Source of the DNA: Conexivisphaerales archaeon
GTDB taxonomy: Archaea; Thermoproteota; Nitrososphaeria; Conexivisphaerales; DTJL01
NCBI GenBank assembly: GCA_049509455.1
Contig: JBEKZX010000056.1
Span: forward strand, 1 to 10,703
Reading direction: 5' to 3'
DNA: 10,703 bases
Shown here: piece by piece, positions 1 through 10,703 of the stretch
How positions within the stretch are numbered: the first letter of the stretch is position 1
Layout of the letters: every line of letters begins with the position of its first letter
Program-made: the position numbers and the translations under genes
The notes under the pieces: generated by a model
Told to the model about the DNA's origin: nothing
Databases searched by the model: none
What the model saw: only the letters and a program-made list of their open reading frames with translations

Positions 1-133
1 ACCACGTACCCTGTCCTTCCGCCCTACTTTTGTTCAACTACGCTGGAGGAATTCACCAATCTGCCTCAAATCACATGATTCCCATATCCAAATGCAATAA
101 GGTTAAGAGATGCATCATTATTCTGATACTATC

Positions 134-253
134 GGCATGGTTCACCTTCCGCAAGAGGTTGGTGAAGGCTCCCCGTGGAGGATTTTCGCGGAGGGCAAAG
201 TCGGTAGGGGGACGGCGTTGACGATTTCGCTTCCGCTGGTGAGGGGGCCGTAG
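134..253 (+). pseudogene. Frameshifted remnant of a histidine-kinase HATPase_c C-terminus
   Basis: The frame ending at TAG 251-253 reads RIFAEGKVGRGTALTISLPLVRGP*, resembling the typical HATPase end (GGRIxxESxxGKGTTFTIxLP). Just upstream, another frame reads TFRKRLVKAPRGG (resembling xCKRLVEAHGG), preceded by GGC ATG (GM, G2-box-like). At least two frameshifts are needed. No upstream kinase-like sequence is seen in 1-130. Confidence 0.6.
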
Positions 254-254
254 A

Positions 255-2879
255 TTGGCGAAGTCGGACGACCTCTCCAGGACGCAGAGATGGCTGGTCA
301 GGAAGCAGGCCCCAATCAGGCTGACCGCGCTGGCCTCCGTCGTTGGGCTCCTGGCCATCGTCATCTTGGACCTCTACACGACGATGGTGACCGGGGGGAC
401 GGCGGCGACCTTCCAAAAAGAGGTCCTGGGCGACCTGCCATTCCTGGTCCTCTCTCTGGTCGTCCTGTACTATATCCTCTCCCGCTACTCGAACGCCCTT
501 CAGAAGGCCCAGGTGAACACCCGCTACGAGGCCTCGCTCGTCGACAGCGTCTCGGACGCCATCATAGCGACGGACCTGAACTTCACCATCACCTCTTGGA
601 ACAAGGGGGCCGAGAAGTTGTATGGCTGGACCACTGAGGAGGCCCTCGGGAAGAACGTCATCGACTTCCTGAAGACGGAGTTCCCCGACACCACCCTGGA
701 AGACGTCCTGGCCCGGCTTTCAAAGGAAAGGTCGGTCAGGGGTGAAGTCTCGCAGGTCTGCAAAGATGGGAGGACCATCGACGTCAGGGGCTCGACTTCC
801 GCCCTGATGGACGCTGACGAAAGGCGCATCGGCTACGCCAACGTTTGCACCGACATCACGGAGGCTAGGCATGCTGAGATGGAATTGCGCTCTGTTGCGG
901 CGTTCCCCGAGGAGAACCCCATGCCAGTCTTACGCCTTATGGCGGATGGAACCGTCGCGTATTCCAACGGCGCTGGAAGGGAGATACTCAAGGTGTGGGG
1001 CTGCGGAGTGGGAGGGGTAGCCCCCGAGTCCTGGCGGGAGAGGGTGAAGGAGGCCCTCGCGGAGAAGGCGAGCAGGGTCGTGGAAGAGGGGTACGGCCTC
1101 GTCGTCTACTCCTTCTCGGTCTGCCCCGTCCCCGAATTCGGCTATGTCAACCTCTACGCATTTGACGTCACTGAGAGGAAGAAGGCCGAGGAAGACCTGG
1201 CCCGCCGCAGCAAGCTTTACTGGGCGCTGAGCGAGTCGAACCAAGCGATCGTCAGGGCGGCCGACAGGGAGGAGCTCTTCAGGGAGGTCTGCGACGTCCT
1301 GGTCCGCAGCGAACTCTTCGTCTTGGCATGGGTGGGCTTCGTCGACCCGGAGACCAGGAGGGTCAGGCCCGCCTTGTGGGCGGGGCACGAAGACGGGCTC
1401 CTGGGCTCCGCCACGACCTCCCTAGACGGCGCCTCCTTGGACAGCCCGATCGCCAGCGCCATCCGCGAGGGGAAGCCCTTCGTCTGCAACGATGTGACGA
1501 CCGACCCCTGGATGTTCCTCAGCCGGGAGGAGGCGCTGAAGAGGGGCTACCGGTCGTCCGCCGCCTTTCCGCTGATGGTGAGGGGAGAGGTGGCGGGCTC
1601 CCTCTTCGTCTACTCCGAGATCCCCTCCTTCTTCGGGGAGGAACAGGTGGGCCTCATGGAGGAGGTCTCGATGGACCTCTCCTACGCCCTGGAAGGGCTT
1701 AAGGTCGAGGAGGAGAAGGGGAGGGTCCTGGAGGCCCTCCGCACGAGCGAGGAAAAGTACAGGGAGCTCGTCGAGAGGGCGAACTCCATCATCCTCAAGG
1801 ACGACCTTCAGGGGCGGATAATCTCATTCAACGAGTACGCCGAGCGCTTCTTCGGCTTCGACAGGGAGGAGGTGATCGGGAAGGGCTTCTTCGAAACCAT
1901 TACGCCGCCGGTGGAGAGCACAGGGCGCGACCTGACGAAGTTGGTGACCGACGTGGTGGCCCACCCGGAGGAGTACAGGACAAACGTCAACGAGAACGTG
2001 AAGAAGAGCGGCGAGCGCGTGTGGATACAGTGGAGCAATTCCGTGATCAAGGACGAGCAGGGGAAGCCCACGGGCGTCCTCTGCGTTGGGACGGATATCA
2101 CTGAGCTCCGCAAGATGGAGGAGAAGCTCATGGCCCACAGCGCCTCGCTGGAGGACATGGTAGAGGCGCGGACAGCCGAGCTGGAGGAAACCCACCGAGT
2201 GCTTCTCGAGTCGGAGAGGCTGGCGGCCATAGGAAGGGTCTCGACCCAGCTGGCCCACGACCTCCGCAACCCCCTGGCGGGGATAGAGATGGAGTCCTAC
2301 CTGCTCAACGAGCTCCTTCCCAAGTCACTTGACCCGAGGGTGAAGGACACTTTGCGGCTTCTCTCGGGCTCGGCTGACCATGCGGGGAAGGTCATCGAGG
2401 ACCTCCTCGAGTACACGCGCGTTCAGGAACCCCGCAGACAGCAACTGGAGCTTGGCGCCTGCATCGCGGATGTGGTGGCAGCGTTTCCCATCCCGAAGGG
2501 TGTCAGCTTGGTGGTCAAGAAGGCTCCCAAGGTCCGCGTTCTGGCGGAGCAGGGCCAGCTGGTGAAGGTCGTCAGGAGCCTGCTAGACAACGCCGTGGAA
2601 GCCATGCCCTCCGGAGGGAGACTCATCGTTTCCTTCGGACTGAAAGGCGGCTTAGTTTCAATCTCCGTGGCGGACACAGGGGTGGGTATCGACAAGGCAG
2701 ACCTTCCGAAGGTCTTCCTGCCCTTCCATTCGACCAAGGCGAAGGGCCTAGGTCTGGGCCTGCCCATCGCCAAGAGGATGATTGAGGCGAATGGCGGCTC
2801 CATGGAGTTGAAGAGCACCAAGGGGAAGGGGACGAAGGTGACGGTGATGCTCCCCATCGCTTCGGAGACGCCCCGATAG
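255..2879 (+). CDS. Membrane-bound multi-sensor histidine kinase (2 TM, PAS, short PAS-like, GAF, PAS, HisKA, HATPase_c)
   Basis: 874-aa ORF with a TTG start. Two hydrophobic N-terminal segments; PAS motifs (DAIIATDLNFTITSWNKGAEKLYGW; SIILKDDLQGRIISFNEYAERFFGF); GAF region (LSESNQAIVRAADREELFREVC...SSAAFPLMVRGEVAGSLFVYS); H-box LAHDLRNPL; N-box LLDNAVEAM; G1 ADTGVGI; F-box FLPFHSTK; G2 GLGLGL. No response regulator in the window. Confidence 0.95.
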   Translation: MAKSDDLSRTQRWLVRKQAPIRLTALASVVGLLAIVILDLYTTMVTGGTAATFQKEVLGDLPFLVLSLVVLYYILSRYSNALQKAQVNTRYEASLVDSVSDAIIATDLNFTITSWNKGAEKLYGWTTEEALGKNVIDFLKTEFPDTTLEDVLARLSKERSVRGEVSQVCKDGRTIDVRGSTSALMDADERRIGYANVCTDITEARHAEMELRSVAAFPEENPMPVLRLMADGTVAYSNGAGREILKVWGCGVGGVAPESWRERVKEALAEKASRVVEEGYGLVVYSFSVCPVPEFGYVNLYAFDVTERKKAEEDLARRSKLYWALSESNQAIVRAADREELFREVCDVLVRSELFVLAWVGFVDPETRRVRPALWAGHEDGLLGSATTSLDGASLDSPIASAIREGKPFVCNDVTTDPWMFLSREEALKRGYRSSAAFPLMVRGEVAGSLFVYSEIPSFFGEEQVGLMEEVSMDLSYALEGLKVEEEKGRVLEALRTSEEKYRELVERANSIILKDDLQGRIISFNEYAERFFGFDREEVIGKGFFETITPPVESTGRDLTKLVTDVVAHPEEYRTNVNENVKKSGERVWIQWSNSVIKDEQGKPTGVLCVGTDITELRKMEEKLMAHSASLEDMVEARTAELEETHRVLLESERLAAIGRVSTQLAHDLRNPLAGIEMESYLLNELLPKSLDPRVKDTLRLLSGSADHAGKVIEDLLEYTRVQEPRRQQLELGACIADVVAAFPIPKGVSLVVKKAPKVRVLAEQGQLVKVVRSLLDNAVEAMPSGGRLIVSFGLKGGLVSISVADTGVGIDKADLPKVFLPFHSTKAKGLGLGLPIAKRMIEANGGSMELKSTKGKGTKVTVMLPIASETPR

Positions 2880-2902
2880 GGTGTGAACACCCTTTCCTTT
2901 CC
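2878..2902 (+). terminator. Possible terminator: small hairpin plus pyrimidine tract
   Basis: AGGGTG-TGAA-CACCCT (6-bp stem overlapping the kinase stop codon) followed by TTCCTTTCC. Confidence 0.35.
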
Positions 2903-3253
2903 TAGAAGGCGTACGTAGGGTTGTCCTGTAAGACTCACTAAGAGCAGCACCGAGCCGAAGCCGCCTTTCCCCACTTACACGGGGATACCTGCGGCTCCGG
3001 TCACTACCGCTACTCCGCAATCCTTGGTTTCCAGGCACCGCCACGCTTCCATGTCGAGATACAAGCCGCATGGCTCCAGGGTGAGGGCTTTCACTCGCCG
3101 TCCGTTTCTTAAGAACAGAGAAGGCGCAGGAAGCCATAGGGCCCAATGCGGGATTGCAGCATTGATTTGAGCATAGCATCCTATGTCCGTGTTCCGGTTA
3201 GAACCCAAGGTCCAAGTCGATTGAGAGCGTCGGTTTGATACCGAGATAGCCAC

Positions 3254-3295
3254 GAATCCGCCCCGGCCCAAGCCACCACGGCGGGGGCGGAGTTC
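3254..3295. other. Strong GC-rich inverted repeat (hairpin) of unknown role
   Basis: GAATCCGCCCC (3254-3264) pairs with GGGGCGGAGTTC (3284-3295): an 11-bp stem with one bulged G and a 19-nt loop. Confidence 0.6.
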
Positions 3296-3300
3296 ATAAC

Positions 3301-3308
3301 TTAATATA
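3301..3308 (+). promoter_or_regulatory. Candidate archaeal TATA box for the zinc-ribbon gene
   Basis: TTAATATA in a GC-rich context. It lies 27 nt before the in-frame TTG at 3335, suggesting that TTG may be the true leaderless start rather than ATG 3311/3314. Confidence 0.45.
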
Positions 3309-3310
3309 TC

Positions 3311-3673
3311 ATGATGGGTCAATCATCAATACCTTTGAGTAGGCATGACAATCAGTTGGCATATCAGAGAGCCAACTTCGAGCGAGCGTTGAAAGGAGCC
3401 CGATGTCCGAAGGACGGAGGCCGCGTGCTTGAAGTGTCCATGCCTGATGTCATCTGTTCCAAATGCTCGACTACCTATGTTCTGGCGATGCGATCAGGTA
3501 CTTTCTTCATGAGGTGGAAGCTCACTGAGAAGGCAGCACCACAGCCTGCCATAGTGAAGGAGAAAGAAGTCATAACGCAGGAGATCGGGAAAGCTCCCTG
3601 CAAGTATTGCGGCAGCTTGGTGGACATAGCCAGGGACCGATTCTGCCCTAACTGCGGTAGAGCCCTCAAGTAG
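3311..3673 (+). CDS. Small protein with two zinc-ribbon-like modules
   Basis: 120-aa ORF with CPKDG...CSKC in the N-terminal half and CKYCG...CPNCG at the C-terminus, separated by a Pro/Lys/Glu-rich linker. The start may be TTG 3335. Confidence 0.75.
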   Translation: MMGQSSIPLSRHDNQLAYQRANFERALKGARCPKDGGRVLEVSMPDVICSKCSTTYVLAMRSGTFFMRWKLTEKAAPQPAIVKEKEVITQEIGKAPCKYCGSLVDIARDRFCPNCGRALK

Positions 3674-3793
3674 ACTTGTACGCTTGGACGCAACCGTTGT
3701 CTATGCCTGAGAGGGAGCCTATTCAACGAAGCAAGATAATAGAATGAGTAAGACGGACAGCGACGAATTGAGGCTATATTTCGCCAGGTGATG

Positions 3794-4213
3794 TTACTTG
3801 CTTATGATGGTAGCGCTGTAATAGCCTGAAGTCCCGTCTTCGAAGACAGCCCTCATCGTAATGTAATAGCTTTGACCTGGGGTCTCACTCCCGTAGTTGG
3901 TGAACTGAAGGGCTCTTGATTGTCCTGGGGAAATAGGGTCGCTACCTGATACCGCTGAGCCGTAGGCAAAGTAACTTCCTTGCCTCGCCCACACATAGAC
4001 AGAGGAAATGAGCATGTAGCTATGGTTGGATAATGCTAAAGACACTATCCCCTCGGTAACGTTACCGGAAACACCCGGGACGGTCACGTTGGTAATCTCC
4101 AAACCACTTACGCCGATCGTCTGACCGATGCCAAGGACGAAATACAGGAACGCACCCACGGCGACCACTATGATAACTACCCCCAATGTCGCCAGTGCCG
4201 GTCGGGGATTCAT
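3794..4213 (-). CDS. Membrane-anchored exported protein with a beta-rich (Ig/pilin-like) extracellular domain
   Basis: The ORF track gives 3794..4276; ATG 4213 (MNPRPALATLGVVIIVVAVGAFLYFVLG) is preferred because a TATA-like TATATTA lies 28 nt upstream. One N-terminal TM helix, a Ser/Thr/Gly-rich beta-strand pattern and three N-X-S/T sequons (NVT, NVT, NHS). Confidence 0.7.
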   Translation of the reverse strand: MNPRPALATLGVVIIVVAVGAFLYFVLGIGQTIGVSGLEITNVTVPGVSGNVTEGIVSLALSNHSYMLISSVYVWARQGSYFAYGSAVSGSDPISPGQSRALQFTNYGSETPGQSYYITMRAVFEDGTSGYYSATIISK

Positions 4214-4240
4214 CGCGAATATTCTGTCGTCGTCGGCGAC

Positions 4241-4247
4241 TAATATA
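4241..4247 (-). promoter_or_regulatory. Candidate archaeal TATA box for the exported-protein gene
   Basis: Minus-strand TATATTA, 28 nt upstream of ATG 4213. Confidence 0.5.
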
Positions 4248-4372
4248 GATGCGCCCTTCGTCACGTCAGGACGCAATCGTTATAGCATGATAGTCGCAAG
4301 CCAGCAGTGTTCCAAGGCAACTACACTTCGGACAACATCTCGTTCGCGGAGCGCAACCGGCACTTGCCGACG

Positions 4373-4379
4373 TTTATTA
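4373..4379 (+). promoter_or_regulatory. Candidate archaeal TATA box for the S9 peptidase gene
   Basis: TTTATTA ending about 26 nt upstream of the TTG start at 4405. Confidence 0.5.
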
Positions 4380-4404
4380 GGATGAGTCGCCAAACCTTTG
4401 CAAG

Positions 4405-6192
4405 TTGAGCCAATCAGAGGTGCTCGAATTCGTCGAGAAGGTCATCCGGATACCTTCCCTTACCCTATGCGCTCTCTCGCAGGACGGAAGGTCTGCCCTC
4501 TTCCTCTCAGACCTATCAGGATCGTACCAGCTCTGGTCTGCCGATACTAGCACTGGCAAGCTGGCCCAAGTCTCGCACGGCGACCAGCGCGTGAGCTTCG
4601 CTGAGATATCGCCCGACTCCAAGTCCGTGGCTTTCATACGCGACTTCGAGGGTGCCGAGCGACACCAGTTCTTCCTCGTCCCAATCACAGGTATGAAGGA
4701 GGAGGTCCAGGTCTCCGACCTCAAGGACGTCCGTGTTTCTGAATTCGACTGGTCACCCGACGGCACGGAGATCGCGGTCGCCGGCTGCACTGCGACGGAC
4801 CAGTGCCTCTGGACGCTGAATCCGAAGACGAAGACACATGAAGAACTCTATTCGTCACACGGTTACATCTTCTCGCCCGCCTACAGCCCCGATGGCAAGC
4901 GCATAGCGGCCATGGCGAAGACCACGGACGCTCCGAGGTCCTCCGAGCTGCTCGTCCTTCACAGAAGGACCGGAGAGGTCAACCTGTACTCTCCGAAGTT
5001 GGGCAGCGAGAATGCCACCCCGAAGTGGCATCCCAAGGGACGGAGGCTTCTCTTCAAGACGAACGCGAAGGGGAAGTATGACCTCGCAGTCTACGACCAC
5101 TCGGAGCAGAAGCTGACCTATCTTAACGCATCACATGTGGGTGTGGATTTCATTAGCTATGGCTGGATGCCGAAGGGAGATGCTGTATGGTTCGTGGCCG
5201 TCAGGAACGGCAGGACGAGGCTCTACATTCAGAATAAGGAAGGCGACCTCAGACTTGTTCCTACGCCGATTGGCAAGATTGACAACGCCAAGCTGAACAA
5301 GGGGGGTTCATTCTTCATCTTCTCTTGGTCGTCGCTTTCGAACCCGCCACAGCTGGCGAAACTTGACCTGAAGACGAAGAAGGTCTCGACAATCTACAGC
5401 CCCCGGTACGACAAGGGTCTCCCACTCGGCATATCGCAGTTCATGACGTACGGCTCGTTAGACGGACTGAAGATACCCGCATTCATGCTTTTCAGTGGCT
5501 CCAGGCGGCCTAAGCCTCTCGTCATCTGGCCCCACGGAGGGCCCTGGTGGGAAGTTGCCGACGAATGGAATCCAGTAATTCAATCGATATGTATGGCTGG
5601 CTTTCACGTCTTCTGCCCCAATTTCAGGGGAAGCACAGGGTACGGCGCAGAATTCGAGCGAATGGACATCGGCGACGCTGGCGGCAAGGACTTTCAGGAT
5701 GTCTTGGCCGGCGTGAAGTTCGTCAGGGAGAAGGGGTTCGTCGATGATGGAAGGATCGCAATCACTGGCGCAAGCTATGGCGGATTCATGACCTTCCTCG
5801 CCATGACCAAGGAGCCAGGACTCTGGAAGGCAGGGGCGGCGATAGTCGGCATCACAGATTGGAAGGAGATGTACGATCTTTCTGACGCTTTATACAGGGA
5901 TTTCGTCGTAGACATGCTGGGAAAACCAGAAGAGAATGCCGAGCTCTACAGGGATAGGTCAGCCATCAACTTCGTGTCGCAGATTGAGGCTCCTATCTTG
6001 ATCTGGCATAGGGCGAACGACTCCCGCGCCCCTCTGCTGCCGGTGCAGAGGTTCGCCAGCAAGCTGCAGGCACTGGGTAAGCCTTACGAGTTCCACGTTG
6101 TGGAGGGCGAAGGACACGGCGCCCAGAAGACGGACAACCTTGTCAAGCAGTACAGGCACGTGGTGTCATTCCTGCTCAAGAACCTGAGCTAG
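4405..6192 (+). CDS. S9 family peptidase (acylaminoacyl-peptidase/dipeptidyl aminopeptidase-like; beta-propeller plus alpha/beta hydrolase)
   Basis: 595 aa. WD40/TolB-like repeats (ISPDSKSVAF, WSPDGTEIA, YSPDGKRIA); PHGGP; PNFRGSTGYG; nucleophile motif GASYGG; catalytic Asp region NDSRAP; catalytic His EGHG. Confidence 0.95.
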   Translation: MSQSEVLEFVEKVIRIPSLTLCALSQDGRSALFLSDLSGSYQLWSADTSTGKLAQVSHGDQRVSFAEISPDSKSVAFIRDFEGAERHQFFLVPITGMKEEVQVSDLKDVRVSEFDWSPDGTEIAVAGCTATDQCLWTLNPKTKTHEELYSSHGYIFSPAYSPDGKRIAAMAKTTDAPRSSELLVLHRRTGEVNLYSPKLGSENATPKWHPKGRRLLFKTNAKGKYDLAVYDHSEQKLTYLNASHVGVDFISYGWMPKGDAVWFVAVRNGRTRLYIQNKEGDLRLVPTPIGKIDNAKLNKGGSFFIFSWSSLSNPPQLAKLDLKTKKVSTIYSPRYDKGLPLGISQFMTYGSLDGLKIPAFMLFSGSRRPKPLVIWPHGGPWWEVADEWNPVIQSICMAGFHVFCPNFRGSTGYGAEFERMDIGDAGGKDFQDVLAGVKFVREKGFVDDGRIAITGASYGGFMTFLAMTKEPGLWKAGAAIVGITDWKEMYDLSDALYRDFVVDMLGKPEENAELYRDRSAINFVSQIEAPILIWHRANDSRAPLLPVQRFASKLQALGKPYEFHVVEGEGHGAQKTDNLVKQYRHVVSFLLKNLS

Positions 6193-6305
6193 GGCGCCGT
6201 TGTGGATGCTTTTAGACCGGATTGAAGAGCAAAGTCCCCTCGTTCGATGTCGGAGGTGTGTTAAATTGAACTGGGGGGACATCGGTGTCGACCTTGATGA
6301 CGCTT

Positions 6306-6347
6306 TCGTTTAATTGACCTATTGTTCTCGATGATGTGAAGATGAAC
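6306..6347 (+). repeat. Extended left arm of repeat copy R1 (paralogous to 7978-8018)
   Basis: TCGTTTAATTGACCTATTGTTCTCGATGATGTGAAGATGAAC aligns with 7978-8018 at 30/42 identity, with 11 transitions and one indel (manual alignment). Confidence 0.7.
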
Positions 6348-6350
6348 GAA

Positions 6351-6379
6351 GCCAGCCCATTCGCAGGCCTAAGCCTACG
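6351..6379 (+). repeat. Inter-gene repeat copy R1
   Basis: GCCAGCCCATT-CGCAGG-CCTAAG-CCTACG; lies between the convergent S9 and GNAT genes. Confidence 0.9.
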
Positions 6380-6391
6380 AAAGCCACCAGC

Positions 6392-6883
6392 CTAAGGTTG
6401 GGGTCGTGTGTACGGCTTCATGTCCAGCTCCAGGAAGACTTCGCCCATGGTCCAGTCGCCCATGAACTGCTTGAAATGATGAGCCTCATAGAATCTTCGA
6501 GCATCAGGGCTAGCTGTGGAGGTTTTGACTCCGATGGCCCCTTCCTTGATCGAATAGGCTATTGCCCTTTTCAGCAGCCTTGAGCCGACGCCTTTGCTGC
6601 GGGATTCCGGGTCGACGTAGAAGCTCGTAATGAAAGAGACTGGACCGCCATCGATGATGTCCTCATACATCACAGTATGGATGAACCCTATGACAGCGTT
6701 CTCTCTGTTGGTGGCTACAAGGAGCTCTCCGTTCCCCACCGCTCTCTTGATCGATGCTTCTCGAGGGGTCTTCCAATGCAACCAATCGATTATGCCCGAC
6801 TCGATAGCCAGCGTATCCTCTGAGATCGCTCGACGAATCCTGATTCTCTCCGACAAGTCCCATCGTTGCCTCCTCAGGTGCAA
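6392..6883 (-). CDS. GNAT family N-acetyltransferase
   Basis: Acetyl-CoA motif A (FYVDPESRSKGVGSRLL) and motif B region (ASPDARRFYEAHHF). The start is uncertain; TTG 6856 (MSERIRIRRA) is a plausible alternative. Confidence 0.9.
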   Translation of the reverse strand: MHLRRQRWDLSERIRIRRAISEDTLAIESGIIDWLHWKTPREASIKRAVGNGELLVATNRENAVIGFIHTVMYEDIIDGGPVSFITSFYVDPESRSKGVGSRLLKRAIAYSIKEGAIGVKTSTASPDARRFYEAHHFKQFMGDWTMGEVFLELDMKPYTRPQP

Positions 6884-6920
6884 AATTCAGCTCTGGTATC
6901 TACAAAAGGCTTCTCTTTCC

Positions 6921-6953
6921 GTCAGCCCATTTCGCAGGTCCAAGCCCACGTCC
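6921..6953 (+). repeat. Inter-gene repeat copy R2
   Basis: GTCAGCCCATTT-CGCAGG-TCCAAG-CCCACG-TCC; lies between the divergent GNAT and AKR genes. Confidence 0.9.
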
Positions 6954-6989
6954 CAAAGAGTATGATTCAAAAGAGAGAGCGACCATCCG

Positions 6990-7907
6990 TTGGATGGCTT
7001 GCGAAGGGATGACTTCATGATACCAGAAAGCCAGTACCGTCATCTCGGCGCCTCCGGAATAAAGGTCTCTCCCCTAGGCACAGGGACCAATAAATGGTGG
7101 AAAGGAAGAAACGATGAGGCTGTTTTCCAGACCTTTCATTCTCTGGTTGATGTGGGTGTGAACTTCTTTGACACTGCTGAGGCCTATAGTTTCGGGAAAT
7201 CGGAGAGCCTAATAGGCGACTGTCTCAAGAGAGATCCTCGACCGGTGGTGATTGGCAGCAAGTTTGCCCCTTACCCCACGCGCTTTTTGCGCCGTCAATT
7301 CATGAGCGCCCTGGACGGCAGCTTGAAACGCCTAGGCCGGCAGGTGATTGACCTGTACTACCTCCACTTCCCTTCCCCTCTGCCAAGCATTGGAACGGTG
7401 ATGGACATGATGGCTAAGGCCGTTGAAGCAGGAAAGATCCGTGCAGTGGGCGTAAGTAACTTCAGTGCCGATCAGATGTACGATGCCGCGGATCGTCTTG
7501 AGAAGTACGGCATTCCTCTAGCCGCCAACGAAGTCCGCTACAACCTTTTCCATCGCCAGCCTGAAGTGAACGGCGTCTTGGATGCCTGCCGTAAACTCAA
7601 CGTAGCCCTAGTGGCCTACCGCCCGCTGGAGGGAGGTCGACTCGCAGTCTCCCCGACAAGTCAGAAGGGGAAAGCAGCTTCGAAGGAGGAGGCAATCCAG
7701 GAGACCCTGCAGAGGGTTGCGCAACAGCGTGGAAAGGGCGTCAGTCAGGTTACCCTGAACTGGATGCTACGCAGGGACGAACACGTGATACCTATCCCTG
7801 GGAGCACCCATGCAAATCACGCGTTGGATAATGTCGATGCGCTCATCTGGCGTCTCAGTGATGATGAATTCGCTGCTATTGACCAGGTCTCTTCACCAAC
7901 CGACTAG
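6990..7907 (+). CDS. Aldo/keto reductase
   Basis: FFDTAEAY (catalytic Asp/Tyr), GSKF (Lys), IDLYYLHFP (His), KIRAVGVSNF and IPGST. The true start may be ATG 7017 (MIPESQYRHLG). Confidence 0.95.
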   Translation: MDGLRRDDFMIPESQYRHLGASGIKVSPLGTGTNKWWKGRNDEAVFQTFHSLVDVGVNFFDTAEAYSFGKSESLIGDCLKRDPRPVVIGSKFAPYPTRFLRRQFMSALDGSLKRLGRQVIDLYYLHFPSPLPSIGTVMDMMAKAVEAGKIRAVGVSNFSADQMYDAADRLEKYGIPLAANEVRYNLFHRQPEVNGVLDACRKLNVALVAYRPLEGGRLAVSPTSQKGKAASKEEAIQETLQRVAQQRGKGVSQVTLNWMLRRDEHVIPIPGSTHANHALDNVDALIWRLSDDEFAAIDQVSSPTD

Positions 7908-7977
7908 TACTGTTTGCCTAAGCTACAGGTTGGGCAAACTTAAAAACCACCAACGGCAAAGGGCCAGCCTTCTGCCC

Positions 7978-8018
7978 TCGTTCAACCAACCTATTGTTTC
8001 AACAACACAAAGATGAAC
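7978..8018 (+). repeat. Extended left arm of repeat copy R3 (paralogous to 6306-6347)
   Basis: TCGTTCAACCAACCTATTGTTTCAACAACACAAAGATGAAC. Confidence 0.7.
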
Positions 8019-8020
8019 CA

Positions 8021-8052
8021 GTCAGCCCATTGTTCGCAGGTCCAAGCCTACG
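8021..8052 (+). repeat. Inter-gene repeat copy R3
   Basis: GTCAGCCCATTGTT-CGCAGG-TCCAAG-CCTACG; lies between the convergent AKR and M29-like genes. Confidence 0.9.
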
Positions 8053-8079
8053 CGCAAGAGGGGTCGTTAACGATTCTGG

Positions 8080-8107
8080 TTCCTCTTCCAACAGCACTGA
8101 TATCCAA
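8080..8107 (+). repeat. Secondary repeat B, copy 1
   Basis: TTCCTCTTCCAACAGCACTGATATCCAA; related to 9388-9412 and 10527-10553. Confidence 0.65.
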
Positions 8108-8169
8108 GAACAGAATGCGCTGCAGCCAATGATGCTCCCTGCTGGGTCTTCCTACTTAGCAACTGCACT

Positions 8170-9315
8170 TCATACCAGCAGCTTGCCGTTGCTCAATACA
8201 GTCATGCCGTCAATGGCGACGGTTGCTCTTGTCATGGACGCCCACCACTCTCCGTTCGCTGTGTTCTTCCCACCTTTGGTCGTGTTATCACCGAACCCAA
8301 TCGTGACTCCTCCAAGAACCTTGTCGTCTTGCGTGCAGCCGGGCCGGAGATTGGGGTTCAGGCCAAATCCAATAAATGCGCATTGGCCAGCGCCGCCACC
8401 TCCTTCCTCCAAGTACTGCTGGAAGACGCCATCACCTGCGACTGCTTCATGGCGAATGGCCTGCCCATCACGGACTAGGACCTTGAGTTTGTCCACCCTT
8501 GATGTTCCTGCCGGTACCGGAACGTCGTAAACCACCGTGCCGTTTGCGCTGTCCTCTTTGACCGAGACCTCCAACGCGCCAGCCGGAAGGAACGTGACCA
8601 TCGCCATCTTGGCCTCCTCTTCTCTCGCTATCCCGTCGGACACGCCGACTGGCCTTCTGTCAAGCTCAAGGCTCAAGTCCGTCCCGAAAGGCGTCGTCAT
8701 CCTGACATTCCCCCTACCAGAAAGGAGCTTCGCCAGCACTTTGCCTCTCCTCGCCATCTTCTCGTGGTCGACCAAGCAGCCCTTGAACATCACGTTCCGC
8801 CATTCTTCGTAGTTCAGTCCTTGCGCCCTTGCTCTTTCAGGTGTCGCAAGGGTGGCTTCTATCGCAAGCATCCGCACACGGTGTTCGCTGGCAATCCGAG
8901 CCCATTCCTTCGCATACGGTGTCTTGTCGTATCGCACGTCTAGCCAGACGGAGACCATTCCTCTTTTCTCCTTCGGGATAGCACTCCAAGGGATCGGGTT
9001 TCTAGGCCCCAAGGTGAAGATGTAGAACTCGGTCTCTGCCAAGGCCGCAGCTTCTTGCGAGCCAACAACGCTCAGCTGCTCCTTGGAACCATCCAGTATC
9101 GAACGAAGCCACAGGTCCTCATACCTGATGCTCAACAGATACGAGCACGCCCGCGACGAGCATCCAGAAGTAAGGGCCCTGGCGAGGTCGAGAGTGTGGT
9201 CCCAACTTTGTATCCAGACCCTGTCCTTCGGTTTCACGCGTAGGCAGGTATCAAACACCTCTCTGACAAGGTGGGAGTAGTCTACGGCCTCCCGCGGGCG
9301 ATGCTTATCCGCCAT
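8170..9315 (-). CDS. M29 (aminopeptidase T)-fold protein, apparently lacking its metal ligands
   Basis: 381 aa with M29-like landmarks (CLRVKPKDRV, TPFGTDLSL, LPAG...EDSANG, GFGLNP, KVLG..IGFGDN..GG). The positions where the family usually has Glu/His/Asp ligands are substituted. Confidence 0.85.
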   Translation of the reverse strand: MADKHRPREAVDYSHLVREVFDTCLRVKPKDRVWIQSWDHTLDLARALTSGCSSRACSYLLSIRYEDLWLRSILDGSKEQLSVVGSQEAAALAETEFYIFTLGPRNPIPWSAIPKEKRGMVSVWLDVRYDKTPYAKEWARIASEHRVRMLAIEATLATPERARAQGLNYEEWRNVMFKGCLVDHEKMARRGKVLAKLLSGRGNVRMTTPFGTDLSLELDRRPVGVSDGIAREEEAKMAMVTFLPAGALEVSVKEDSANGTVVYDVPVPAGTSRVDKLKVLVRDGQAIRHEAVAGDGVFQQYLEEGGGGAGQCAFIGFGLNPNLRPGCTQDDKVLGGVTIGFGDNTTKGGKNTANGEWWASMTRATVAIDGMTVLSNGKLLV

Positions 9316-9343
9316 TCCCGCATGAACGTTCGTCTTTCAGGAC

Positions 9344-9349
9344 AATAAA
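9344..9349 (-). promoter_or_regulatory. Candidate archaeal TATA box for the M29-like gene
   Basis: Minus-strand TTTATT, 29 nt upstream of ATG 9315. A 7-bp inverted repeat (ATGTCGT 9352-9358 / ACGACAT 9378-9384) lies directly upstream. Confidence 0.5.
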
Positions 9350-9387
9350 CCATGTCGTATTCCTAGTGACCGCCTCCACGACATTAG

Positions 9388-9412
9388 TTCCTTTTCCATC
9401 ACCAACGGATAT
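9388..9412 (+). repeat. Secondary repeat B, copy 2
   Basis: TTCCTTTTCCATCACCAACGGATAT, directly abutting R4. Confidence 0.6.
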
Positions 9413-9413
9413 G

Positions 9414-9445
9414 GTTGGCTCCATTTTCGCAGGTCCAAGCGTGCA
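9414..9445 (+). repeat. Inter-gene repeat copy R4 (most degenerate)
   Basis: GTTGGCTCCATTTT-CGCAGG-TCCAAG-CGTGCA; lies between the divergent M29-like and Ddn-like genes. Confidence 0.8.
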
Positions 9446-9581
9446 GCATGGATGAGAATCATGTATTCCGAGTCGATGTCTCGGAAGTCTTTTAGGGGCC
9501 TGGCCAATTGATTCGTTGCAATGAACTCCCGCAAGTTTGGAGGGAACATGGGTCACGACCAATTTCAAAGGAAGCGAGCTC

Positions 9582-9995
9582 ATGAGTAGACCCGGCGACT
9601 TCAACGCGCACAATATCGCCGAGTTCCGCAAGAACCACGGAAAGCTCGGTGGCTACTTTGAAGGGGCGCCGATACTGCTACTTCATACCATTGGGAGACG
9701 CAGCGGCAAACCTCGAATCAACCCGATGATGTACCTCAAAGACGGGGAGCGTTACCTTGTGTTCGCGTCGAAAGGGGGCGCCGATACCCACCCGGATTGG
9801 TACTACAACCTCAAAGCCCATCCCGACGTCCAGATTGAGGTCGGTGACGGCACAGTCGACGTGCACGCCGAAGAGATCACCGGCCGTGAACACGACACCC
9901 TCTACAAGCGCCAAGCCACCCTGTACCCAGCATTCGCCGAGTATCAACACAAGACGAAGAGGGTGATCCCGGTGATAGCTCTGACAACGAAATAG
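9582..9995 (+). CDS. Deazaflavin (F420H2)-dependent nitroreductase/quinone reductase family protein (Ddn/FDOR-A-like)
   Basis: LLLHTIGRRSGKPRINPMMY, VFASKGGADTHPDWYYNLKAHP and FAEYQHKTKRVIPV are hallmark motifs of the family. ATG 9582 is preferred to 9537 because the family N-terminus (DFNxxxIAEFRxN) starts there. Confidence 0.93.
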   Translation: MSRPGDFNAHNIAEFRKNHGKLGGYFEGAPILLLHTIGRRSGKPRINPMMYLKDGERYLVFASKGGADTHPDWYYNLKAHPDVQIEVGDGTVDVHAEEITGREHDTLYKRQATLYPAFAEYQHKTKRVIPVIALTTK

Positions 9996-10138
9996 CCCTA
10001 GCTTTCTTCCACCCGGTGTTCCAGGCCTTTCTCATCCTGCCCAGCTAGACGGATCCTGGTGAGACCGCAGAATACCGAACTACAAATGGTCATATTCAGC
10101 CGGAGCACGGAATACTACCGATTCAAATCCCCAACGAA

Positions 10139-10174
10139 GCCGGCCCATCTTTCGCAGGCCCAAACCCTACGTCC
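10139..10174 (+). repeat. Inter-gene repeat copy R5
   Basis: GCCGGCCCATCTTT-CGCAGG-CCCAAAC-CCTACG-TCC, preceded by AACGAA as in R1. Confidence 0.85.
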
Positions 10175-10245
10175 TGAGACCAATCATCCGTCGAGTCGCT
10201 TCGTATAAGAACGTGGAGAGTTCATGAGTTGCTGGCGAGAGTGGA

Positions 10246-10461
10246 TTGAGAAGGGAGTACATCGCAATCACGGCTGTTGTGGCAGCCTTCATCTTGTTCG
10301 CCACTTTCGTTCCTTTCATAACAGAGCCCAGTAATCTTTGCGCTGTGGGATGTCCGGCATCGTCAGTCAACGCCACTCAAACTGCCTCTCTGACCTACCA
10401 CTTCTCCCTTTTTGGGGCAGTGATAAGGCTGGATTCCACCTACCAAATGCTAATCTATTGA
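10246..10461 (+). CDS. Small hypothetical membrane/exported protein
   Basis: 71-aa ORF (TTG start) with an N-terminal TM helix (YIAITAVVAAFILFATFVPF) and a CAVGC pair. It fills the R5-R6 interval; a TATAAG lies at 10205-10210. Confidence 0.6.
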   Translation: MRREYIAITAVVAAFILFATFVPFITEPSNLCAVGCPASSVNATQTASLTYHFSLFGAVIRLDSTYQMLIY

Positions 10462-10472
10462 GTGAACACCAA

Positions 10473-10507
10473 GCCAGCCGCATTTTCGCGGGTCCAAGCT
10501 TACGTCC
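10473..10507 (+). repeat. Inter-gene repeat copy R6
   Basis: GCCAGCCGCATTTT-CGCGGG-TCCAAG-CTTACG-TCC. Confidence 0.85.
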
Positions 10508-10526
10508 AGGATGGACAGTAATGTAA

Positions 10527-10553
10527 TTCCTTCCAACAACCACAGATATCCAA
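10527..10553 (+). repeat. Secondary repeat B, copy 3
   Basis: TTCCTTCCAACAACCACAGATATCCAA. Confidence 0.65.
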
Positions 10554-10618
10554 ATGGCCGACTCAGTTTCGTTTGCCAATAACCTCAGTCAAATAGGTTG
10601 GCCGTCTGTCCCATCATC

Positions 10619-10703
10619 CTACTTGGTTTCCTCGAATTCGACGAGCCCGTCCTGGAAGTCGACGTCCACGTGGGCGCGGTCACATAGGGGTTTGTTCATC
10701 GAA
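10619..10703 (-). CDS. C-terminal part of a CDGSH iron-sulfur domain protein (5' end outside the window)
   Basis: The minus-strand frame from 10702 reads SMNKPLCDRAHVDVDFQDGLVEFEETK*, matching the SxNKPxCDxxH end of the CDGSH motif. Not in the supplied ORF track. Confidence 0.75.
   Translation of the reverse strand, partial: SMNKPLCDRAHVDVDFQDGLVEFEETK

Follow-up and report, generated by a model that had tools for sequence, protein, structure and literature searches.

Do the short direct repeats in this stretch of archaeal DNA mark the joints of exchangeable gene cassettes and, if so, is the system related to integrons? The stretch analysed (hereafter the window) is the whole of a 10.7-kb contig (C93) from a 2.05-Mb, 140-contig metagenome-assembled genome (MAG; G000) of a peat-soil archaeon belonging to the Conexivisphaerales (Nitrososphaerota). 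An initial annotation, made from the sequence alone, had noted six co-oriented copies of a motif with one gene in each interval, and had proposed an integron-like platform for gene capture and shuffling that uses a site other than the attC site of integrons. We find that the repeats are the joints of a gene-cassette array that is real and active, and that the site forming these joints is polar, has no secondary structure and bears no relation to attC. The array comprises at least 11 cassettes, and its first six joints lie in the window. Comparison with relatives shows that units between sites disappear, appear, change order and pass from species to species, that the breakpoints fall inside the site, and that adjacent sites stay co-oriented.

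The six copies (R1 to R6) span positions 6346-10507 of the window. All carry a 16-mer, TTCGCAGGTCCAAGCC, which starts at 6360, 6931, 8033, 9426, 10151 and 10485, always on the + strand and with 0-2 mismatches, giving start-to-start spacings of 571, 1102, 1393, 725 and 334 bp. Allowing up to 3 mismatches, the window contains six matches to the 16-mer where 0.13 are expected, and none of 200 shuffled sequences reached six; the copies, their shared direction, their positions and their spacings are as first described. The complete site reads (A)GYCAGCCCA, then a T-rich spacer varying by 0-5 nt, then the invariant 16-mer and finally YACGTCC. The differences in T-run length among the window copies are real, and the variation of the spacer between GCCCA and the 16-mer rules out a coding repeat, in line with the earlier argument from indels. 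The first site of the array is R1 (6346-6382, +; 16-mer at 6360-6375, two mismatches). R2 (6917-6953, +; 6931-6946, perfect) and R3 (8017-8055, +; 8033-8048, perfect) are the left and right joints of a unit encoding an aldo/keto reductase (AKR). R4 (9414-9448, +; 9426-9441, one mismatch) has a diverged 3′ tail, whilst R5 (10137-10173, +; 10151-10166, two mismatches) and R6 (10470-10507, +; 10485-10500, two mismatches) are the left and right joints of a unit with a 71-residue open reading frame (ORF). A profile built from all genomic copies found no site in 1-6340, confirming that the first 6200 nt of the window contain no clear copies.

The strongest evidence for cassettes comes from three wild peat metagenome contigs that are ~99% identical to the window (L090, L115 and L145), which come from the data sets Ga0187881, Ga0187857 and Ga0187889. 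L145 follows the window from 2005 to 6950 (99.7% identity) and then continues, through one site, into 8021-8852 (99.0%), so that the 1.1-kb AKR unit is missing; its remaining site is a hybrid in which the left part of R2 is fused to the right part of R3. L090 follows the window from 7481 to 10174 and passes through a single site, standing for both R5 and R6, into 10468-10703; here the 333-bp unit of the 71-residue ORF is missing. This unit is present in L115 (99.7%), which also extends the array past R6 with five more co-oriented sites, R7-R11; R6 is therefore not the end of the array. Moreover, all indels of at least 120 bp between contigs of at least 96% identity in the analysed data set fall at these repeats. 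In 48 independent site pairs (85-99.9% identity) there was no case of a bare site present in one partner and absent in the other. Set against the unit-level indels, this indicates that what moves is the unit and not the repeat.

To place these events in a wider context, 289 unique site copies from genomes and metagenomes were compared by their flanks. Among 129 site pairs with a homologous flank, 58 share the upstream unit and 79 the downstream unit, with 8 sharing both (121 on one side only). Where the upstream unit is shared the homology reaches the site and then ends, and where the downstream unit is shared it sets in ~22 nt downstream of the first base of the 16-mer. Markers that vary on the 5′ side of the 16-mer go with the upstream unit and those on its 3′ side with the downstream unit, which places the exchange zone in the 16-mer. 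Four events could be mapped more closely. For the AKR event, and for a 310-bp event that distinguishes another site-bearing genome, G002, from a metagenome contig, the crossover maps to TCGCAGGTCCAAGCC, within the 16-mer. That of the R5/R6 event maps to the 5 nt AAGCC, at the 5′ edge of the site, and in a two-unit swap between the relative G004 and L116 the end of the upstream module U1 (see below) was used on one side and the 3′ end of a site on the other.

The same behaviour is seen between species. The unit from R1 to R2 (6348-6950), which encodes a GNAT acetyltransferase, matches G004:C8:5500-6108 at 90% identity and has other neighbours there, and the unit of the Ddn-like gene has an 83% identical counterpart on G004:C5, immediately after a site. 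The AKR gene of the window is absent from G004, and the sole G004 match to the M29-like gene is 68% identical, with no site nearby. Elsewhere in G000 there are three units paralogous to the AKR unit, which like that of the window start at an equal distance after a site and are preceded by different units. Identity is 88-95% in further blocks common to G000 and G004:C2 and ~72-88% in the syntenic core. The ends of these blocks lie 0-85 nt from sites, and one block runs from site to site (G000:C112 2221-4391 = G004:C2 26692-28864). Taken together, gene order is not fixed among relatives, and even near-identical strains differ by single units with the breakpoint inside the motif.

We found ~70 copies of the site on 30 contigs of this genome. 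The 12 contigs of at least 40 kb (774 kb) hold one of the 70, and 14 of the 70 lie within 400 nt of a contig end; site arrays would explain why the assembly breaks there. Orientation was counted for adjacent copies no more than 10 kb apart, and 37 of 39 such pairs in this genome and 110 of 110 on 53 metagenome contigs are co-oriented. The motif is therefore clustered and locally one-directional, unlike a scattered REP or MITE. Neither outcome named beforehand as refuting the initial reading, a motif scattered genome-wide in both orientations or a gene order fixed across relatives, was observed. Allowing 1 mismatch, we found the 16-mer in each of the five species of the genus that were searched (60, 58, 44, 24 and 1 copies); in general there are roughly 25-70 copies per genome. 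Among 41 related genomes, the 36 of other genera gave one single-mismatch match, probably by chance. A search of 185,579 species genomes (one each) with a 20-mer found only three other MAGs, whose records are titled Conexivisphaerales or Nitrososphaerota archaeon. The site is confined to one genus of the Conexivisphaerales.

The near-complete relative G004 (10 contigs) allows the arrangement to be followed over longer distances, and co-oriented clusters of copies are found on seven of its contigs. Its contig C2 (286 kb) carries 18 copies on the + strand at 15.5-103.9 kb, six on the - strand at 104.6-139.8 kb and none in the other 146 kb. In this genome only two neighbouring site pairs switch orientation; over four contigs there are at least 7 switches overall, once within 4 kb. 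The sole switch on C2, at G004:C2:103884-104640 (L016), is a place where two arrays meet head to head, in the nearly symmetric order upstream module U3, site, downstream module D1, a 0.4-kb unit, and then inverted D1, site and U3. Replication direction was rejected as what sets the orientation: the switches are too many, and GC skew was uninformative. The site clusters of G004 coincide with lower GC; the region that carries them aligns to G000 over only 0-47%, whereas alignability reaches 100% in syntenic sequence. The sites sit in variable, lower-GC, poorly conserved islands.

What kind of site is this? The attC sites of integrons are imperfect hairpins of 55-140 nt with the boxes R″ (RYYYAAC) and R′ (GTTRRRY), and are recombined as folded single strands. 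DNA folds of R1, R3 and R6, computed on both strands against shuffled sequences, gave z scores of -0.45 to -1.34, and the stretch from site into D1 gave +1.2 and +1.7. Integron boxes (RYYYAAC...GTTRRRY) do not stand at conserved positions in the site, its consensus shows no dyad symmetry, and no Rfam family matches it. Lacking hairpin, R″/R′ boxes and dyad, the site is neither an attC, nor a REP hairpin, nor an Xer-type site, and on the absence of a hairpin the early description of it as non-attC holds. An att site derived from a tRNA gene was also rejected; there was no significant similarity to the detected tRNA genes (best E 0.44 among 25 found by aragorn, although many intron-rich tRNA genes of this genome escape detection).

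The cargo is diverse. Unit 1 contains the GNAT acetyltransferase gene with its own upstream region (6392-6883, -), unit 2 the AKR gene (6990-7907, +), unit 3 an M29-like aminopeptidase gene (8170-9315, -; a weak match), unit 4 a gene for an F420H2-dependent, Ddn-like quinone reductase (9537-9995, +) and unit 5 the 71-residue ORF (10246-10461, +), which matches no family. In unit 6 the 3′ end of a CDGSH iron-sulfur protein gene (10619-10703, -) runs off the window; the full-length copy in L115 has the zf-CDGSH domain and is followed by another site. All gene calls of the initial annotation survive, that of M29 on its weak match. The cargo of R7-R11 in L115 comprises CDGSH, an ABC transporter and small ORFs of no assigned function. 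The array is bordered on the left by an S9 prolyl-oligopeptidase-family gene (4405-6192, +), which is not a recombinase, and on the right, in L115, by an NHL propeller, an archaeosortase-like gene and an F420 oxidoreductase. Upstream, the window encodes a PAS/GAF histidine kinase and small ORFs besides the S9 peptidase, and GC is 53-56% in the array part against 62-64% in the kinase gene.

In the window each interval does contain one gene, and units measure 0.3-1.4 kb. This is not general: elsewhere units reach ~6 kb and, by crude ORF calling, contain up to six ORFs; among 55 intervals, 27 have one ORF and two have none. By the same calls, 58 cargo ORFs run in the direction of their site and 57 against it, and the four possible flanking configurations are about equally frequent. 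A promoter or a terminator is accordingly rejected, as the initial annotation had already concluded, and gene capture in the integron sense, with expression from a common promoter, does not apply to genes lying equally on both strands. The commonest cargo family (39 members) combines an ArsR-like winged helix-turn-helix domain (DUF7347) with a membrane segment and a variable outer domain (e.g. G000:C96:2994-4118 and L131:7670-8824), some members sharing the signal/membrane start alone. These features suggest many paralogues that serve as regulators or surface proteins anchored in the membrane; the family was considered as the recombinase and rejected, being cargo. The next most recurrent array proteins are pairs of ABC ATPase and permease, beta-propellers and an adenylate-cyclase/TPR protein, and array families of 451, 287 and 425 residues had no Pfam or PHROG match.

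Some sites are accompanied by side modules. Among copies without a common unit, sharing extends only ~70 nt to each side. Across 90 sites the upstream module families number 20 (U1), 11 (U2) and 4 (U3), and the downstream module D1 was found at 16; upstream and downstream modules combine freely. Mini-units consisting of site, D1 and site exist, although most intervals are genes. In the window, U1 precedes R1 (6307-6346, +; TTAATTGACCTATTGTTCTC...AAGATGA) and R3 (7981-8016, +), U2 forms a small hairpin, GTTTGCC-N14-GGCAAAC, at 7908-7945 (+), and by alignment a diverged D1 follows R6 (10505-10554, +; ...TTCCTTCCAACAACCACAGATATCCAAA). To judge from its sequence, U1 could be a promoter, with an AT-rich box ~27 nt before an ATG. 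There are 57 unique U1 copies, 24 of which are followed by a site. Often U1 precedes, in place of the site, a linker TTAAGCGATTGAG...GTCGTCGGTCAGGCC and then D1, as at L046:1345-1441 (-) and ~33 other places. This linker aligns at the position of the site, resembles it weakly and could be a variant, decayed or empty site. When sites were located via U1 or U2, the 16-mer either matched at 14-16 of 16 positions or was absent, two apparent chance matches at 11-12 of 16 aside, with no decayed series. That the 16-mer is intact or absent while the modules vary points to constraint on the 16-mer. D1 was also considered as a marker of array ends and rejected, since it occurs inside arrays.

The only recombinase genes that adjoin sites belong to the IS110 family. 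A 1.3-kb element of this family is present in three copies in G004 (L032:3225-4520, L033:3997-5295 and L031:1403-2709, on contigs C3 and C7), which are 93-95% identical; in one of them the gene is broken. Every copy sits at TTTCCAG|CAGC inside D1, within ~50 nt of a site, and the non-coding end of the element, upstream of the transposase gene, carries TTTCCAGCA, identical to the insertion point. This segment looks like the target guide of a bridge RNA and would fit RNA-guided targeting of the repeat. A second, different IS110 element (L034:4810-5253; G000:C52) lies in U1 after ...CAATAACATA, 8 nt before the end of U1, and the contig stops within its transposase gene. By analogy with the IS1111 elements of attC sites, these elements are best described as parasites of the site region, and nothing indicates that they move cassettes.

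How, then, do the units move? Each cassette is a self-contained unit of one or a few accessory genes, on either strand, ending in the polar site, with the modules U1, U2 and D1 as optional additions at some sites. In the scheme that we propose, recombination between two neighbouring co-oriented sites would free a unit as a circle with one site, and recombination of this circle with any resident site would reinsert it; all sites would thereby keep one direction and arrays would build up. With less confidence, the reaction would be ascribed to a putative sequence-specific recombinase. Given a site with neither dyad nor hairpin, an enzyme for asymmetric sites, either an RNA-guided DEDD (IS110-type) recombinase or a new family, would be favoured over a classical tyrosine or serine recombinase. 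We judge the chances to be about even that units are exchanged by such a dedicated enzyme, possibly through RNA-guided reading of the asymmetric site. The fuller proposal, to which we give rather less than even odds, is of a gene-cassette system proper to the genus and independent of integrons, in which a putative enzyme, new-family or RNA-guided, recognises the 16-mer, excises single-site circles and inserts them within and between species.

A number of results weigh against the scheme. The initial annotation had placed a dedicated recombinase outside the window, possibly at the end of a cluster; clustering and unit gain and loss at a non-attC site have stood up, and no conserved or array-linked recombinase was found. 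Neither border of the array, left or in L115, holds one. The single PF00589 gene of G000 is on a contig without sites, and the tyrosine recombinases of four genomes are paralogues of 23-44% identity, most of them far from sites; at such divergence none is a conserved partner of an identical site, and they were rejected as the enzyme. No Y1, resolvase or TnpB gene was found near sites. IS110 insertions were not seen in the 16-mer, and IS110 genes occur in only 2 of 4 site-bearing genomes. No circular form of a unit was seen, and a fixed crossover point was sought in vain, the four mapped events disagreeing and defining no single phosphodiester. The scheme also gives no account of how a new gene gains a site. 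In a separate search for a guide RNA, 12-mers of the site occurred outside sites at about chance level, none in a non-coding RNA-like context.

The variable crossover positions make homology-driven recombination a serious rival to a dedicated recombinase. On this explanation, which is possible and to us the less likely of the two, the architecture is the same and general homologous recombination (RadA, Hjc) or replication slippage acts on 16-30 nt of identity; the sites are a successful dispersed repeat, between whose copies DNA is deleted, circularised, reinserted or replaced. It accounts for crossovers that fall inside the 16-mer, at the 5′ edge of the site or in U1, for the failure to find an array-linked or genus-conserved recombinase, and for a site without the dyad or hairpin that classical site-specific enzymes use, and integration of circles by homology would likewise keep sites co-oriented. 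It leaves unexplained why more than 200 different units end in one site, and why the 16-mer stays at 14-16 of 16 without decayed copies amid drifting modules. Moreover, the crossover identity in the R5/R6 event is only 5 nt, a poor substrate for strand exchange, and two conserved boxes around a variable spacer look more like recognition elements than like mere homology. By contrast, we regard as improbable the idea of a miniature transposable element (of the REP, MITE or PATE-like kind) that has the site as its conserved end and inserts strand-specifically, for example into single-stranded DNA at the fork, with shuffling as a secondary effect. Long runs of one orientation, as on G004:C2, the family-specific side modules and the single Y1 (IS200-type) gene in each of G000 (C118) and G004 (C5:213 kb) are in keeping with it. 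Yet neither Y1 gene has a site nearby, no empty site appeared in the 48 comparisons although unit events occur at the same divergence, and there is no hairpin or terminal inverted repeat. The seven or more orientation switches on four G004 contigs are too frequent for replication direction, and modules that combine freely do not form whole-element subfamilies.

A pile-up of small integrative elements at an att site derived from a tRNA or other host gene, duplicated each time as in staphylococcal SCC composite islands, would also produce co-oriented direct repeats around units, and there are several tyrosine integrases of 400-500 residues, two of which, in G002, lie inside site clusters. We consider this more doubtful still, as the site shows no significant similarity to the tRNA genes detected, each genome has dozens of clusters and not one att locus, and the units lack an integrase, the integrases themselves being divergent paralogues. 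There is very little to recommend a regulatory or RNA element between genes (promoter, terminator, leader or small RNA). The site is indeed intergenic and the AT-rich box of U1 could be a promoter, but the even strand split across all four gene configurations, the lack of an Rfam match or conserved fold, and the gain and loss of site-bounded units are not what such an element would give. The least probable of all is a canonical integron or a cluster of attC sites lacking an integrase (CALIN), despite the co-oriented sites, the small units, the accessory cargo (GNAT, oxidoreductases) and the scattered clusters. The folds are no better than those of shuffles, R″/R′ boxes and IntI are lacking and genes lie on both strands, so that an integron or CALIN is refuted on the defining features tested.

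In behaviour, integrons are nevertheless the closest known systems, above all sedentary chromosomal integrons and CALINs. Integrons have IntI and an attI site at the head of the array, both absent in CALINs, and mostly promoterless ORFs in one orientation served by a promoter, Pc. As in integrons and CALINs, the arrays described here consist of small units that each end in one polar site, with accessory cargo, much of it of no assigned function; sites resemble one another more inside a lineage than across lineages, single units vary between close strains, one unit is found among different neighbours, clusters are scattered without an adjacent integrase, and insertion sequences specialise on the sites. 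They differ from integrons in a site of ~35 nt that is asymmetric and unstructured, in lacking IntI, attI and a common promoter, in genes that face either way, have upstream regions of their own and often stand several to a unit, and in a crossover that is variable in the few events mapped. Most integrons reported from archaea are CALINs, found in archaeal MAGs (PMC9668308).

For short sites with side modules and a link to IS110-type enzymes, the nearest known system is neisserial. In Neisseria, NIME (neisserial intergenic mosaic elements) are arrays of a 20-bp repeat, dRS3 (ATTCCC-N8-GGGAAT), between RS modules, for which an IS110/Piv-type recombinase has been proposed (PMC1797815). The proposal has an IS110-type phage recombinase act at dRS3 and homologous recombination complete the exchange (PMC1797815); the IS110 elements inserted beside the present sites are a parallel to this. 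Like dRS3, which is present in hundreds of copies, in arrays, the site described here is a short, genus-specific repeat with families of side modules, in arrays that are dynamic between strains and lie near variable genes. It is, however, polar and without terminal inverted repeats, its intervals are whole genes and not non-coding modules of 50-150 bp, and it is archaeal and not bacterial. A further parallel is provided by Acinetobacter plasmids, whose pdif sites are 28-bp dyads (11-6-11) in alternating orientation, recombined by the XerC/XerD of the host. There too, discrete gene modules are bounded by short sites in varied contexts with no adjacent dedicated recombinase; the present site differs in being co-oriented and without a dyad.

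Insertion sequences specialised on repeats are also known. IS1111-attC elements insert in the attC sites of integrons. More generally, a bridge or seek RNA directs IS110/IS1111 elements to repeated sequences (PMC11208160). The IS110 genes beside sites and the match of TTTCCAGCA to the insertion point agree with such targeting, whereas the insertions lie in D1 or U1, and not in the 16-mer, and the elements are ordinary 1.3-kb insertion sequences. With REP/REPIN-RAYT systems and MITEs the site shares short length, restriction to a lineage, intergenic position and tens to hundreds of copies, and it differs from them in having no palindrome, inverted pairs, empty sites or flanked RAYT gene, in its strict local co-orientation and in the breaks of synteny at the repeat. 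A search of the literature found no paper describing this site or array system.

To our knowledge, integrons are the only well-understood platform for stockpiling and shuffling single genes, and all known cases, including archaeal ones, use IntI and a folded attC. In wild peat metagenomes we see integron-like population behaviour at a site that has none of the features of attC, and no integrase was found. If a dedicated enzyme exists, gene cassettes would have been invented a second time, independently, and its site, being short and asymmetric, would be a candidate for use in inserting DNA directionally. If there is none, a polar repeat of 16-30 nt and ordinary recombination would suffice to divide roughly one-third of an archaeal accessory genome into exchangeable modules, and this would change how variable islands in MAGs are read.

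Lastly, three smaller observations concern sequences away from the arrays. A lone exact 20-mer occurs at L155:10494-10513 (IMG/VR UViG_3300033508_000303), inside a tail-like gene on a tailed virus contig with an integrase; a viral source of the site was rejected, this match lying within a coding region, without the 5′ box, and most likely being due to chance. The U2 hairpin also stands alone in many places away from sites in G004 (e.g. C2:19208 and 30916), and U2 is a separate, genus-specific repeat and possibly a terminator. The first 15 kb of the 286-kb G004 contig (G004:C2:1-15000; L011) have a GC of 42-46%, against ~60% in the core genome, have no match in G000 and are probably foreign DNA.

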